From assembly GCA_019419955.1 (NCBI GenBank), contig JAHZIB010000003.1, positions 13,749 through 77,748 on the forward strand: 64,000 bases of DNA, in the 5' to 3' direction. Source of the DNA: Clostridiales bacterium (GTDB lineage: Bacteria; Bacillota; Clostridia; TANB77; CAG-508). The first letter of the stretch is position 1; the number at the start of each line of letters is the position of its first letter. Both the position numbers and the translations under genes were made by a program. The notes beneath the pieces were generated by a model. The model worked only from the letters and a program-made list of their open reading frames with translations, was not told the origin of the DNA and searched no databases. Shown in pieces: positions 820 to 7,825 of the stretch.

Positions 820-840
820 TAATAGGATGTGAGCTTTGAT

Positions 841-1179
841 ATGAAGAAGAAAGATATAAATGACTATATAGATACAGAACTTAGTAAATTCAAATTTAAT
901 AGAACAAGTTTAGGATATAAATACCTAAAAATGGCAATAAAAGATGGGATTCAAGATGAATTATTGATAGAAGATTTAAATAATAGATTATATGAAAAAA
1001 TGCAAAAAGAATTAAATGTAAATAAAAAAAGAATAAAGTGGAATATGGAGAAAAATTTAGATAGTATGTATATTAATACTGATATGAAACAGATAATGAG
1101 TTATTTTTATGTGTCAGAGTGTGAGAAAATCACACCAAAGTTATTTATTACTACTCTTGTAGAAAATTATTTTAGATAA
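841..1179 (+). CDS. Stand-alone Spo0A C-terminal (DNA-binding effector) domain-like protein
   Basis: LGYKYLKMAI ... RLYEKMQKEL ... RIKWNMEKNL ... EKITPKLFI parallels the Spo0A pattern GYxYLxxAI ... LYxxIAKK ... VERAIRHAI ... KPTNSEFI. The start is uncertain (GTG 829 or ATG 841). Confidence 0.55.
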   Translation: MKKKDINDYIDTELSKFKFNRTSLGYKYLKMAIKDGIQDELLIEDLNNRLYEKMQKELNVNKKRIKWNMEKNLDSMYINTDMKQIMSYFYVSECEKITPKLFITTLVENYFR

Positions 1180-1188
1180 ATTAAAGGT

Positions 1189-1211
1189 GGGTACATACAA
1201 AGTATGTACCC
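1189..1211. terminator. Hairpin between convergent genes; likely bidirectional terminator
   Basis: Perfect 10-bp stem GGGTACATAC-aaa-GTATGTACCC. Confidence 0.6.
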
Positions 1212-1233
1212 ATGGTTAGAGAGCATATAAAAG

Positions 1234-1839
1234 TTATACTACACCTACAAATATTTGGACACTACACCGTGCGGGTGTTGCATATCCATCTTCATAACAA
1301 GAATTATAGACAAATCTATAATCTAACCCTTTTGTAGTTGAAATCCAATCAGATTGTTTTGACTGTACATTTCCAATATTGCCAATACTGGTTAAGTACA
1401 TAGTATTAATATAAGATGGATGTCCATACTTATACAAATGAATTCTTAAATATGCTGCACTATTAGAATTTGGCCACCATTTCACGCCATATTTCATCTG
1501 ATTACCATTTACTGTAAAGTACGAACCACCATTTTCTCCAGAAAAGGAGAATTTGGGAAAAGTATGAGTATCTCCGCTACCAATAGAAATATGGTCGCTT
1601 GAAGCAGGAATGGTAATCAGATAGAATTCCATATCTTGAGCTTCATCTTTAGAAACGTCCAAGACTTGCATTGCTTCTTCCTTAGAAACACCAGCTTCTT
1701 CAATACTCTGTACGTCAAGAGTATTGCTCTCAACGGTTGGAGTATCATCTACTGCAAGAGTAGATAAAGGAAAAGCACACAAGCACAATACAAATGTCAA
1801 AATAAGGCATAAAACCTTAGATAACCGAGTGCTAATCAT
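1234..1839 (-). CDS. Secreted protein of unknown function (signal peptide, acidic pro-region-like segment, beta-rich C-terminal part)
   Basis: N-terminus MISTRLSKVLCLILTFVLCLCAFPLSTLAVDD is signal-peptide-like. No family recognised. Confidence 0.55.
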   Translation of the reverse strand: MISTRLSKVLCLILTFVLCLCAFPLSTLAVDDTPTVESNTLDVQSIEEAGVSKEEAMQVLDVSKDEAQDMEFYLITIPASSDHISIGSGDTHTFPKFSFSGENGGSYFTVNGNQMKYGVKWWPNSNSAAYLRIHLYKYGHPSYINTMYLTSIGNIGNVQSKQSDWISTTKGLDYRFVYNSCYEDGYATPARCSVQIFVGVV

Positions 1840-2061
1840 GAAAAAAACTCCTAATTATTACTTCATAAGCTCTCTAACCATATTATCAGTCACAAAGTGA
1901 CTAATAATTAACAAAAATATATTAATATATATCATAATAATGATTAAAAGTTAAGAAAAGTGGAACAAAGTGGAAAGATATGAGGCAAAAAGGTGATATA
2001 ATATAATCCAATAATTACAAATCAGGAAAATGATATAAAATATGTTTAGCGAGGTAAAAGT

Positions 2062-2781
2062 ATGAGCACTATCCTTATAGCAGATGACGAACTAACAACT
2101 GTAAAAAATATATTTAATGGTCTAATGGAGAAGGAAAACGATATAAAAATTATTGGAATTAGTAGCAATGGTAAAGAAGTTTTAGAAATTATGCAAAAAA
2201 ATATACCAGATATTTTAATATTAGACCTAATGATGCCAGAAATGGATGGGTTGGAATTATTGGATATATTAATAGAGCAAAAAGACAAATATCTAACAAA
2301 GACTAAAGTGATTGTGATTTCTAGCTATATTGATAAATTATACAAAACAGATAAATATAGGGAATACATATATGGTATACTTCCTAAACCATACAATGCA
2401 TTAAAATTATTAAAATTAATTGAAAAAATAAACATAGAAAATGATAATAAAAATATAAAGAGATATGTAGAAGAATCTTTAAAAGAATTTAACTTTAATA
2501 AAAATTCCAGTTCATATAAATATTTACAAGATGCAATATATCAAGTAATATATGAGGGGAAAGTTAATTTTGATTTAGAAAACGATATATACAAAAAGGT
2601 TGCAAAAAAGAATAACAAAAAAAATGGACTTGTAATAAAATGGGGAATTGAAAAATTAATGAATAACATGTATATGGATACAAAGTATAATATTGTTAAC
2701 GAATATTTTAATTTTATTGAAGATAAAAAGCCAACTACAAAGTTATTTATAAGATATGTTGTAAACAACTTTGAAAAATAA
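2062..2781 (+). CDS. Response regulator: receiver domain fused to a Spo0A_C-like effector domain (Spo0A paralogue)
   Basis: Receiver motifs are ILIADDE, ILILDLMMPEMDG, VIVISS and PKP. The C-terminal part is SSYKYLQDAI ... IYKKVAKK ... KWGIEKLM ... KKPTTKLFI. Confidence 0.75.
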   Translation: MSTILIADDELTTVKNIFNGLMEKENDIKIIGISSNGKEVLEIMQKNIPDILILDLMMPEMDGLELLDILIEQKDKYLTKTKVIVISSYIDKLYKTDKYREYIYGILPKPYNALKLLKLIEKINIENDNKNIKRYVEESLKEFNFNKNSSSYKYLQDAIYQVIYEGKVNFDLENDIYKKVAKKNNKKNGLVIKWGIEKLMNNMYMDTKYNIVNEYFNFIEDKKPTTKLFIRYVVNNFEK

Positions 2782-6552: not shown

Positions 6553-6579
6553 TAAAAAAGTATCATTTTGGGGGTATAA

Positions 6580-6967
6580 ATGAATAAACATAAAGTTATT
6601 ATTATAATATTTATATTAGTGTTATTGGTATCCAATATATTAGCTTTAAATTGTAGAATTGCATTTCCAAACGATAAAATGAATAATATTATTTATTCTA
6701 TAATACCCCAAGATACAACTCCTATATTAGTAATCTCAGAATATTTTTTCACAAGCAACCCCTGGATAGAAATTATATATAAAGATGGGTGGAAAATTGA
6801 TTGTATTAAAACTAAAAAAAGGCGGTGCAGGTAATTCAATAACAGAGGTAGTAGCAGAGACAATAGAAAATAATATTTTTAATAATATATGGATTTCAAA
6901 TATTATAATCATTACGATAATTATATTAATCTTAATATTGAAAAAGAGAAATTTATTAAAAAAATGA
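6580..6967 (+). pseudogene. Small protein with N- and C-terminal hydrophobic segments, apparently split by a 1-nt indel in an A7 run
   Basis: ORFs 6580-6834 and 6785-6967 join to ...IKTKKGGAGNSITEV... if one A of 6814-6820 is removed. Confidence 0.3.
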
Positions 6968-6991
6968 CCTAAAAATTTTAGGCCATTTTTT
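6968..6991 (+). terminator. AT-rich hairpin plus T-run
   Basis: CCTAAAA..TTTTAGG then CCATTTTTT. Confidence 0.45.
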
Positions 6992-7016
6992 AGCAGTTTG
7001 TGAGCTGATGGATGTG

Positions 7017-7063
7017 TCAGTAGAGACAAAGGTTTAAGCTATGTAGCAAAACATGTATTCAGC
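7017..7063. repeat. Degenerate, internally deleted copy of the intergenic repeat family (see 41529-41790)
   Basis: TAGAGACAAAGGTTTAAGCTATGTAGCAAAACATGTATTC resembles CAGAGCAACAGGGTTAGGCTAT...CAAGCAAAG...ATGTATTTC at 22909-22968. Confidence 0.35.
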
Positions 7064-7105
7064 ATAAAAGCATACAATTTATAATAAATTATCTACTTTT
7101 AAAGC

Positions 7106-7825
7106 TTAACTATCTCTTATTGTTTTACGAATATATGATACACTACTACTAATAAATTCTTTCGTTGTCATTTTTTCTCCATAATATTCATCTAATATAT
7201 TAAATATATTTTTATCTTGTGCTCTATCAAATGTTCGCTCTATCATTTTATCAATAGTTGAACGAACAGATTTAGCATTTGAGCAATTCTCACTTTTAGT
7301 GACATTTTTCATTAAAATTTCGTTGTTTTGCAATAGAGCGGGTTTTGAATAAGCAATAATAATTGCCATTTTTAATAGTCTTCTGCCTTTACAAAATGGA
7401 AATCTCAAATTACTTAATAAATCATCTACAATAATGTTAACTCTCTCTGGGGTAATATTTCGTATAGCCGATTTTCGTATAACATCAATAAGGTTTTCAT
7501 ATTCAAAAGGTTTAGCCATAACCCACCTTACTTTTTCAACATTTGTTAGATTTGCTCGATATTCTGTGTCTCCAGACAGAACAATAATATTTTTTTTGGG
7601 TTTAATTTCTTTTCGTGTCAAGTCCTTTATGATTTCAAGTCCATTTTTTTCTGGCATTTTCAAGTCAAGTAATAAAAGGTCAGGTTGTATTTCAAAATAT
7701 TTTCTTTCGATATCTTTCCAATTATGTGCTATTCCTATTACTTTAAAATCTTTTTCTTTTGTTAACACACCAAACAATGATTCACAAAAAGAAACATCGT
7801 CATCTGCAATTAACAGTTTAATCAA
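7106..7825 (-). CDS. Response regulator: receiver domain fused to a Spo0A_C-like effector domain (second Spo0A paralogue)
   Basis: TTG start at 7825 lies 7 nt after GGAGG. Receiver motifs are LLIADDD, LLLLDLKMPEKNG, IIVLSGD and AKPF. The C-terminal part is KGRRLLKMAI ... AKSVRSTIDKMIERTF ... EKMTTKEFI. Confidence 0.7.
   Translation of the reverse strand: MIKLLIADDDVSFCESLFGVLTKEKDFKVIGIAHNWKDIERKYFEIQPDLLLLDLKMPEKNGLEIIKDLTRKEIKPKKNIIVLSGDTEYRANLTNVEKVRWVMAKPFEYENLIDVIRKSAIRNITPERVNIIVDDLLSNLRFPFCKGRRLLKMAIIIAYSKPALLQNNEILMKNVTKSENCSNAKSVRSTIDKMIERTFDRAQDKNIFNILDEYYGEKMTTKEFISSSVSYIRKTIRDS

Follow-up and report, generated by a model that had tools for sequence, protein, structure and literature searches.

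A 13,424-bp integrated element occupies the left end of the window analysed here (64,000 nucleotides of contig JAHZIB010000003.1, from a Clostridiales bacterium of the gut lineage CAG-508) and encodes three paralogues of the Spo0A effector domain, Spo0A_C. These open reading frames (ORFs) are:

841-1179 (829 is an alternative start), plus strand: ORF1, 112 aa, which consists of a Spo0A_C-type domain alone and has no receiver (Pfam, profile, AlphaFold2/Foldseek)
2062-2781, plus strand: ORF2, a response regulator of 239 aa with a receiver and a Spo0A_C-type domain (Pfam, NCBIfam, alignments)
7106-7825, minus strand: ORF3, a response regulator of 239 aa with a receiver and a diverged Spo0A_C-type domain (Pfam, profile-profile comparison)

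The gathering cut-off of the Pfam family Spo0A_C (PF08769) is 25 bits. ORF1 scores 37.4 bits and has no Response_reg match, ORF2 scores 38.3 bits in addition to 65.2 bits for Response_reg, and ORF3, which starts from a TTG codon at 7825 with GGAGG in front, scores 52.3 bits for Response_reg and 22.2 bits for Spo0A_C, slightly under the cut-off. A family profile of the ORF3 C-terminal domain (21 relatives) nonetheless matched the ORF1/ORF2 family profile, built without ORF3, with 97.6% probability and an E-value of 2.7e-12, and in the same kind of profile-profile comparison it matched the DNA-binding domain of B. subtilis Spo0A with an E-value of 2e-6. When a profile of 19 C-terminal domains was searched against all PDB sequences, the sole matches were 1fc3 and 1lq1, the Spo0A effector domain, over the full length (E 4e-6); a profile is needed here, a single-sequence search with ORF1 giving Spo0A at a non-significant E of about 1. 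The AlphaFold2 model of ORF1 (pLDDT 90.7) has six helices and its only significant Foldseek matches are again 1fc3 and 1lq1, with TM-scores of 0.78-0.81 and a root-mean-square deviation of 2.1-2.4 Å over ~106 residues. The C-terminal half of the ORF3 model has the same helix pattern as the Spo0A effector fold; since Foldseek with full-length ORF3 is dominated by receiver matches, this domain was judged by the profile-profile comparison instead. By profile and fold, all three C-terminal domains are placed in Spo0A_C and in no other helix-turn-helix (HTH) family. A hidden Markov model (HMM) scan of all six frames of the window found no fourth Spo0A_C-like ORF.

The receivers were examined for the acidic pair, acceptor Asp, Ser/Thr and Lys at the positions of CheY D12/D13/D57/T87/K109 (PF00072). 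In the close-family alignment A3, D8, D9, D55, S87 and K109 of the ORF2 receiver are invariant; in the ORF3 family, D54 and S84 are invariant while D8, D9 and K105 are nearly so. Judging by these residues, both receivers are apparently phosphorylatable. HisKA and HATPase_c domains are absent from the element and from every related context list examined, so that no version of the element brings a histidine kinase and both receivers would depend for phosphate on kinases of the host or on small-molecule donors.

Much of this agrees with the original prediction, which had placed three Spo0A_C ORFs in a recombinase-driven element of ~13 kb. The ORF list and the element ends confirm that all three lie inside it, ORF3 on the minus strand, and the element itself has defined ends, a large serine recombinase and a length of 13,424 bp. 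The motifs that had been quoted are all present (LGYKYLKMAI...EKITPKLFI, SSYKYLQDAI...KKPTTKLFI and KGRRLLKMAI...EKMTTKEFI in the effector domains; ADDE/ADDD and LDLMMP/LDLKMP in the receivers). The proposed Spo0A_C assignment was borne out by the HMM search for ORF1 and ORF2 and rescued by profile-profile comparison for ORF3; profiles and the fold prediction for ORF1 lead to the Spo0A effector domain and not to a different HTH family. The phospho-acceptor residues said to be kept by the two receivers are conserved across the ORF2 and ORF3 families.

The distance from Spo0A itself is large. The best NCBIfam model for both ORF2 and ORF3 is Spo0A (TIGR02875), at 67.6 and 66.4 bits, for an equivalog model whose curated cut-off is 200 bits; ORF1 has no match to TIGR02875 in NCBIfam. 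By these scores ORF1, ORF2 and ORF3 are not orthologues of Spo0A, and identity to Spo0A in the effector domain is ~20%. The aligned recognition helices read as follows:

Spo0A recognition-helix signature (alignments): SRVERAIRHAIEVAW
ORF1 segment aligned to the Spo0A recognition helix: KRIKWNMEKNLDSMY
ORF2 segment aligned to the Spo0A recognition helix: LVIKWGIEKLMNNMY
ORF3 segment aligned to the Spo0A recognition helix: KSVRSTIDKMIERTF

Whether the recognition-helix residues are conserved was a point raised by the original prediction, and they are not: the E, R, R and H of the Spo0A stretch VERAIRHAIEVAW are replaced in all three proteins, by K, W, E and K in ORF1 and ORF2 and by R, S, D and K in ORF3, and only the buried core positions (V/I/I) and one acidic residue are kept. 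Where Spo0A has VERAIRH, ORF1 has RIKWNMEK, ORF2 VIKWGIEK and ORF3 SVRSTIDK; the motif IKWx[IM][ED]K is common to ORF1 and all ORF2-type proteins and is not found in ORF3. All DNA-contacting residues of Spo0A are reported to be conserved from Bacillus to C. difficile (PMC3485338). Given that conservation, the replaced helix argues against recognition of the 0A box TGTCGAA, and competition for 0A boxes appears unlikely from the alignments.

The genomic neighbours of the three ORFs are holin, hydrolase and recombinase genes in a bounded element, not spoIVB; the chromosomal spo0A gene adjoins spoIVB and recN. A host sporulation gene, SpoIIE, lies in the window at 60233-62728, and the host very probably has its own spo0A elsewhere. 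In Foldseek searches with full-length ORF3, Spo0A receivers are among the top structures and have the highest identity (29-31%), with DesR at 28%; the identity of the ORF3 receiver to Spo0A barely exceeds that to DesR or CheY.

ORF1 and ORF2 belong to a cargo module that also contains:

286-819, plus strand: Phage_holin_4_1 holin (Pfam, 95.5 bits), the first gene of the module; public gene calls give 161 aa from 334
1234-1839, minus strand: protein of 201 aa, conserved in the module, whose N-terminal segment resembles a signal peptide; it matches no family
2795-3811, plus strand: conserved protein of 335-338 aa directly after ORF2, with a membrane anchor at its N-terminus and without a match to any family
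4165-6552, plus strand: peptidoglycan hydrolase of 792-795 aa with PG_binding_1, an Rv2525c-like glycoside hydrolase domain and a YkzU C-terminal region (precomputed Pfam)

The hydrolase has no signal peptide and matches the phage family phrog_15213 (E 1.8e-114). ORF2-type genes, which we followed down to 46% identity (54% where contexts were examined), are always found in a portable module. In its full order this runs holin, stand-alone Spo0A_C, 201-aa secreted protein, ORF2, 335-aa membrane protein, an optional GH25 lysozyme and the 792-aa PG_binding_1/Rv2525c-like hydrolase, and it is often accompanied by an extracytoplasmic function (ECF) sigma/anti-sigma pair. Its settings vary: a serine-recombinase element in the window, a position beside a tyrosine integrase in L010, and the company of PcfJ, SSB, DUF3846 and Gp3-like genes in L007. 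The paralogue sets recur as well, L010 and L013 each having a stand-alone copy and two regulators and L007 two regulators. In several relatives the ORF2-type gene is third in an operon, after the ECF sigma gene and an anti-sigma-like gene (DUF4179 in L162); these operons are located at:

L161, 7128-12038: ECF sigma operon with an ORF2-type gene
L160 and L162, 8358-10792: ECF sigma operons with an ORF2-type gene

In L161 a reduced module sits in the chromosome, in an apparently non-mobile context near Spore_YtfJ and ScpA genes.

A short tandem repeat accompanies the ORF2-type genes, and occurs in the window in two versions:

1958-1975, plus strand: perfect tandem box AAGTGGAA-CA-AAGTGGAA, in a 10-bp register, upstream of ORF2
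4075-4092, minus strand: degenerate tandem box AAGCAGAA-AA-AAGTGGAA, with 2 mismatches, upstream of the hydrolase gene

From the end of the perfect box to the TATAAT of an extended -10 element (TGATATAAT, 1994-2002) upstream of ORF2 there are 21 nt. Allowing at most one mismatch, the tandem form AAGTGGAA-N2-AAGTGGAA is present in intergenic DNA at 8/8 ORF2-type loci examined, and absent from the ORF3-only loci (0/3) and from ~95 unrelated loci totalling 1.6 Mb. The sequences flanking the box are unrelated between lineages. In four loci (the window, L013, L160 and L162) it lies directly upstream of the operon with the ORF2-type gene, which in L160 and L162 means upstream of the sigma gene; in L161 it is found ~0.9 kb upstream of the sigma gene, beyond a 196-aa gene. 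The pattern has 56 matches in IMG/VR, about what chance would give by a rough estimate, and none of the 56 has a Spo0A_C-like ORF beside it. We had also considered the single 8-mer AAGTGGAA, which seemed enriched, and rejected it as a coding-strand word with 19 occurrences in the window; the tandem form alone is specific. A sigma-70 promoter scan gave 105 sites where 100 would be expected and so carries no information in DNA this rich in AT.

Compared with the 0A box, the tandem box unit has GT-GAA in common; the central base is G for C and the flanks differ. Because the box co-occurs with ORF2-type loci and the helix motif shared by ORF1 and the ORF2-type proteins is absent from ORF3, we infer that ORF2 and ORF1 bind the tandem box, which makes it their candidate operator. 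What is new here is the constant partnership of ORF2-type gene, tandem box and holin-hydrolase cargo.

ORF3 has a different set of partners. The ORF3-type family comprises 65 clusters, annotated only as 'response regulator', and in the window the gene is transcribed divergently from a run of genes for a sigma-70 region-4-like (sigma-r4-like) protein, an HTH_16-like protein and others, ending in a recombinase gene:

7826-8233: conserved divergent control region between ORF3 and the sigma-r4-like gene
about 7955-7994: 20-bp tandem repeat ATTACAAT(T/A)TTTT(A/C)(C/T)GATTT, conserved in L096 and L099 and present as one copy in L013
8234-8626, plus strand: sigma-r4-like gene, 94 aa and frameshifted here, 130 aa in relatives
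8627-8806, plus strand: HTH_16-like protein of 59 aa
9348-10022, plus strand: genes for a 140-aa HTH protein and an 81-aa protein, also present in tyrosine-integrase elements
10483-12048, plus strand: large serine recombinase of 521 aa (Resolvase 81, Recombinase 88 and Zn_ribbon_recom 32 bits)

Whereas the run ends in a serine recombinase in the window, in L096, L097 and L099 an ORF3-type gene is divergent from sigma_r4 (130 aa), 59-aa HTH_16-like, 56-, 140- and 81-aa genes, an HTH_17 excisionase-like gene and a tyrosine integrase. L098 has the same run, but with an IS110-family transposase gene between it and the ORF3-type gene. In L096-L099 the module is found beside Gp3-like and DUF3846 genes, with a relaxase in L098. 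The 140-aa HTH and 81-aa proteins are putative excision-control or directionality factors.

The 20-bp repeat is a candidate operator for ORF3. In the leader of the sigma-r4-like gene, the stretch UUAUCUCCUUU (8176-8186) is predicted to pair with the ribosome-binding site AAAGGAGAUA (8218-8227), and an identical upstream copy (8051-8060) could compete for this pairing. The region 8030-8240 has a minimum free energy of -43.7 kcal/mol (z = -4.06) and its sequence is invariant among relatives; Rfam has no match in the window, leader included. The leader may possibly act as a translational switch, according to this folding model. The frameshift in the sigma-r4-like gene results from a run of six T (T6, 8493-8498) where L006 and L013, with an intact 130-aa frame, have T7. 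The 94-aa call is common to several independent metagenome contigs (L001-L005), and the T6/T7 tract may be phase-variable.

The arrangement recalls Tn916, in which Orf9 represses Porf7-orf7-orf8-xis-int (Delavat et al., 2017; PMC5812530). Like Tn916, these loci have a regulator divergent from sigma-like and small HTH genes that precede the recombination genes, and in the relatives these include an HTH_17 excisionase and a tyrosine integrase. Unlike Tn916, they have a Spo0A-like response regulator in place of the Xre-type Orf9, and the element of the window uses a large serine recombinase and has no conjugation genes. The resemblance to Orf7 and Orf8 is at the domain level only (Sigma70_r4, 40 bits; HTH_16, 21.7 bits against a cut-off of 22).

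The element is of the large-serine-recombinase type and is inserted precisely in a ZIP transporter gene of the host. Its ends and last gene are:

12155-13387, plus strand: AAA_14/DUF4143 ATPase (Pfam), the last gene inside the element
13-21: attL core ACCAGAAGG, the left 9-bp direct repeat, within the HDIPEG codons of the split ZIP gene
26-41: left terminal inverted repeat TTCTAAAGTAGACAGT, which pairs with 13418-13433
13418-13433: right terminal inverted repeat
13437-13445: attR core ACCAGAAGG, the right 9-bp direct repeat
13453-13740, plus strand: C-terminal fragment of the interrupted host ZIP gene

The terminal inverted repeats are imperfect and their arms pseudo-palindromic. The N-terminal ZIP fragment, of 184 aa, ends at the start of the window, as seen in contigs carrying identical proteins, and joining the flanks in silico gives ...FHDIPEGISMAVPMK and restores the ZIP ORF in frame. 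The excision junctions expected are GATATACCAGAAGGGATATCAATGGC for attB and ...CTTCAGAATCAACCAGAAGGAATATTCTAAAG... for attP. Against the uninterrupted zip gene of L013 (a related species, ~81% identity) the break falls precisely within the HDIPEG codons. An exact search of metagenomes for the rejoined junction returned two contigs: L102, from another species with ~80% nucleotide identity, carries zip uninterrupted, and L103 has no similarity to the flanks of the window. The core of the window is present in the zip genes of both L013 and L102. Insertion into the zip gene is supported. Contig counts by exact sequence are about the same for element proteins as for host housekeeping proteins, which suggests that the element is near-fixed in this species.

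In NCBIfam the recombinase scores best with CcrC, XisF and CcrB, though far under the cut-off of each. As in skin/SpoIVCA, SPbeta/SprA and the staphylococcal cassette chromosome (SCC, Ccr), a large serine recombinase lies at one end, the insertion is in a host ORF that is restored on joining, and the arms are pseudo-palindromic; what differs is the target, a ZIP metal transporter, and the holin/hydrolase cargo with Spo0A-like regulators, and no sign of developmental timing was seen. The 90%-identity cluster of the recombinase has 552 member sequences, against 8-39 for the clusters of host housekeeping proteins, and the recombinase therefore circulates far more widely than the host lineage.

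Genes for conjugation are absent from the element, as are those for capsid, tail and terminase. Upstream of the window (L001, 809-5833), genes for a type IV secretion system (T4SS) coupling protein of the VirD4/TraG type, a metallophosphatase and an SbcC-like ATPase precede prfA and zip. In L160 and L162 the Spo0A_C module is directly downstream of a T4SS coupling-protein gene, and these two observations together are the grounds on which the element of the window may be a relocated fragment of a conjugative element. Beyond the element, at 30983-58994, are six very large co-oriented ORFs (1,059-1,834 aa); the four that were examined have SdrD_B with DUF11 or CarboxypepD_reg repeats, and the cluster accordingly resembles surface adhesins.

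With a profile of the C-terminal domain, a HMMER search of 1.84 billion representative proteins gave 1,415 clusters at 50% identity with E<=1e-3, of which 215 reached E<=1e-10. By length there are among them stand-alone (~110-135 aa) and receiver-fused (~235-250 aa) forms and forms with 3-4 tandem copies. P0173, P0183, P0243 and P0181 are examples of the last, chains of 350-470 aa with three or four tandem Spo0A_C-like domains, an architecture that to our knowledge has not been described. Of 118 genomes surveyed, ten were reported to have two spo0A paralogues and that of Anaerostipes hadrus to have three (Galperin et al., 2022; 10.1101/2022.02.25.481979), the mobile elements of gut Firmicutes are enriched for PF08769 (Jiang et al., 2019; PMC6907783), and truncated, effector-only spo0A homologues in gut phages have been proposed to manipulate sporulation (Schwartz et al., 2023; 10.1101/2023.01.19.524802). 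The premise of the original prediction that Spo0A_C is normally single-copy fails in view of the 1,415 clusters and of these published paralogue, mobile-element and phage copies, and the occurrence of Spo0A_C proteins on mobile elements is already known. Our loci resemble those of Galperin et al. and Jiang et al. in having multiple Spo0A-type genes per genome and an association with mobile elements; those reports are counts, without neighbourhood, operator or role, whereas here there are defined modules and a conserved cis element. By its description the phage spo0A of Schwartz et al. is like ORF1, an effector-only Spo0A_C protein on a mobile element of a gut Firmicute. Unlike it, ORF1 lies on an element that is not a recognisable phage and is accompanied by two receiver-fused paralogues, and the evidence here favours an element-internal regulon over the host sporulation network.

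Megablast of the element against GenBank phages gave no DNA match, and tblastn of ORF2 and of its C-terminal domain against phages and plasmids gave receiver matches or nothing. The hydrolase had one weak partial match among GenBank phages by tblastn (32.8% identity over 62% of the query). IMG/VR was scanned with the hydrolase, the profile of the C-terminal domain and the ORF3 family; no relative of full length turned up, and the ORF3 family gave two partial matches confined to the receiver. There is a weak PHROG match to a Spo0A-like regulator family, phrog_37855. In a GTDB genome scan one true relative was found, a mouse-gut Clostridia metagenome-assembled genome (L016), and the rest were unrelated receivers.

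Taking these observations together, we think it probable, with moderate confidence, that the three diverged Spo0A-family paralogues are the element's own transcription factors, serving its cargo module and its recombination genes. ORF2 and ORF1 would bind the tandem AAGTGGAA-N2-AAGTGGAA next to the -35 position of cargo-module promoters, and ORF2's own promoter would be among the targets, resulting in autoregulation. ORF2 would be active only when phosphorylated. The isolated effector domain of Spo0A is constitutively active, and for that reason we propose that ORF1, having no inhibitory receiver, would be a phosphorylation-independent activator or a competitor at the same boxes. ORF3, in its Orf9-like position, would probably gate excision. 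The phosphate for ORF2 and ORF3 would come from host kinases or small-molecule donors, and the host's kinases, or its Spo0A, may possibly provide input. Homology, fold, receiver residues, element ends, the recurring gene neighbourhoods and the confinement of the conserved box to loci with ORF2-type genes are observed; which protein binds the box, whether it activates or represses, where the phosphate comes from and how excision is controlled are inferred.

This proposal keeps much of the Spo0A design. The effector fold, with its six helices, is that of B. subtilis and C. difficile Spo0A (PDB 1FC3, 1LQ1, 1QMP) at a TM-score of about 0.8, ORF2 and ORF3 have the same receiver and effector architecture and acceptor-site residues, and, as with clostridial Spo0A, the regulators are orphans in an element without a kinase gene. 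The candidate operator is likewise a tandem direct repeat; in PDB 1LQ1 a pair of Spo0A domains occupies tandem 0A boxes in head-to-tail orientation. The differences are the multiple copies on a mobile element beside holin and hydrolase genes, and a candidate box that is AAGTGGAA and not TGTCGAA.

Several observations count against the regulon proposed here. In front of the hydrolase gene the box has a degenerate, inverted form, the single 8-mer AAGTGGAA is frequent on coding strands, and the box could instead serve another protein of the module, such as the ECF sigma factor of several relatives. On the side of ORF3, the excision circuit may be inactive in the window, given the frameshift in the sigma-r4-like gene, and tblastn of the sigma-r4-like protein against plasmids, made for a link to Tn916 Orf7, gave no match. 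The metagenome search found no empty site or circular junction from the same species, only junctions from other species. Finally, there are 5 exact 0A boxes (TGTCGAA) in the window, 3 of them in the element where ~0.5 would be expected, and this excess possibly leaves room for input from host Spo0A. Those in the element are:

3577: exact 0A box, inside coding sequence
8419: exact 0A box, inside coding sequence, not kept in L013
12145: exact 0A box, intergenic, directly upstream of the AAA_14 gene and overlapping a promoter-like TTGACA-17-TATATT

These boxes also bear on the explanation closest to what the original prediction had put forward, that the paralogues interfere with the host sporulation switch, either by competing for 0A boxes or as phosphate sinks or decoys for the Spo0A kinases. 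The Spo0A fold, the Spo0A model as the best NCBIfam match of both regulators, and the Spo0A receivers at 29-31% identity among the top Foldseek matches all fit such a role, as do orphan receivers with intact acceptor sites, SpoIIE in the host and the surplus of TGTCGAA in the element; the same role has been published, as speculation, for truncated phage spo0A. We nevertheless regard it as unlikely. The E, R, R and H of VERAIRHAIEVAW are replaced and the scores reach one third of the equivalog cut-off, the module has its own conserved box, distinct from TGTCGAA, only one 0A box of the element's three lies outside coding sequence, that at 8419 is not kept in L013, and receiver identity to Spo0A is barely over that to DesR or CheY. 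Among the roles that had been suggested, an element-specific switch fits the evidence. That the proteins act as decoys or compete for 0A boxes is unlikely, since the helix is replaced and the box is the module's own rather than TGTCGAA.

We also doubt that the locus is a decayed prophage whose three proteins are largely inert remnants of the lysis-lysogeny regulators of a holin/endolysin cassette. The holin and the endolysin-like hydrolase do match PHROG families, there is the weak match to phrog_37855, the large serine recombinase stands at one end of an element without conjugation genes, and the sigma-r4-like gene is frameshifted. Yet capsid, tail and terminase genes are missing; among GenBank phages nothing matches the element as DNA or the ORF2 effector domain as protein, the hydrolase has its one weak partial match there, and the IMG/VR scans with the three queries named above yielded no relatives of full length. 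Relatives of the module adjoin ICE-like genes (integrative and conjugative elements) for a T4SS coupling protein, relaxase, PcfJ, SSB and DUF3846. The three ORFs are moreover intact and conserved across lineages to ~54-59% identity, which argues that they are under selection.

A bolder version of the element-regulon proposal, and in our view a quite unlikely one, would tie it to host development: as sporulation begins, ORF2 and ORF3 would receive phosphate from the orphan sporulation kinases of the host, ORF2~P with the support of receiver-less ORF1 would fire the holin and hydrolase through a '0A-like' box (GTGGAA for GTCGAA), and ORF3~P would trigger excision and rebuild the ZIP gene. If true, a mobile element would have copied and retargeted the Spo0A module, timing its own lysis and excision to host sporulation. 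Least probable of all, indeed very improbable, is a developmentally excised intervening element of the skin/SPbeta kind whose regulators couple excision and ZIP restoration to the phosphorelay: a precise in-frame insertion with the ORF restored on joining, a large serine recombinase, apparent near-fixation in the species and a sporulation-capable host speak for it, but the gene that is split has no part in sporulation, no control of the sigma-E or sigma-K type was seen, although none was looked for, at other sites the regulatory module accompanies tyrosine integrases (L096-L099), and the sigma-r4-like gene is frameshifted here.

Surveys of sporulation use PF08769 as a marker that 'uniquely distinguishes Spo0A' (PMC6136694), and copies on phages and mobile elements are currently read as tools to hijack sporulation. 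A large and mostly unannotated branch of Spo0A_C has a different recognition helix. For the ORF2/ORF1 branch our analysis provides a concrete candidate regulon and operator for an uncharacterised regulator family, while in uncultured gut Clostridia the partners of ORF3-type genes are recombination modules of integrative elements. A match to PF08769 should thus be read with caution, as it is not equivalent to spo0A or to the manipulation of sporulation.

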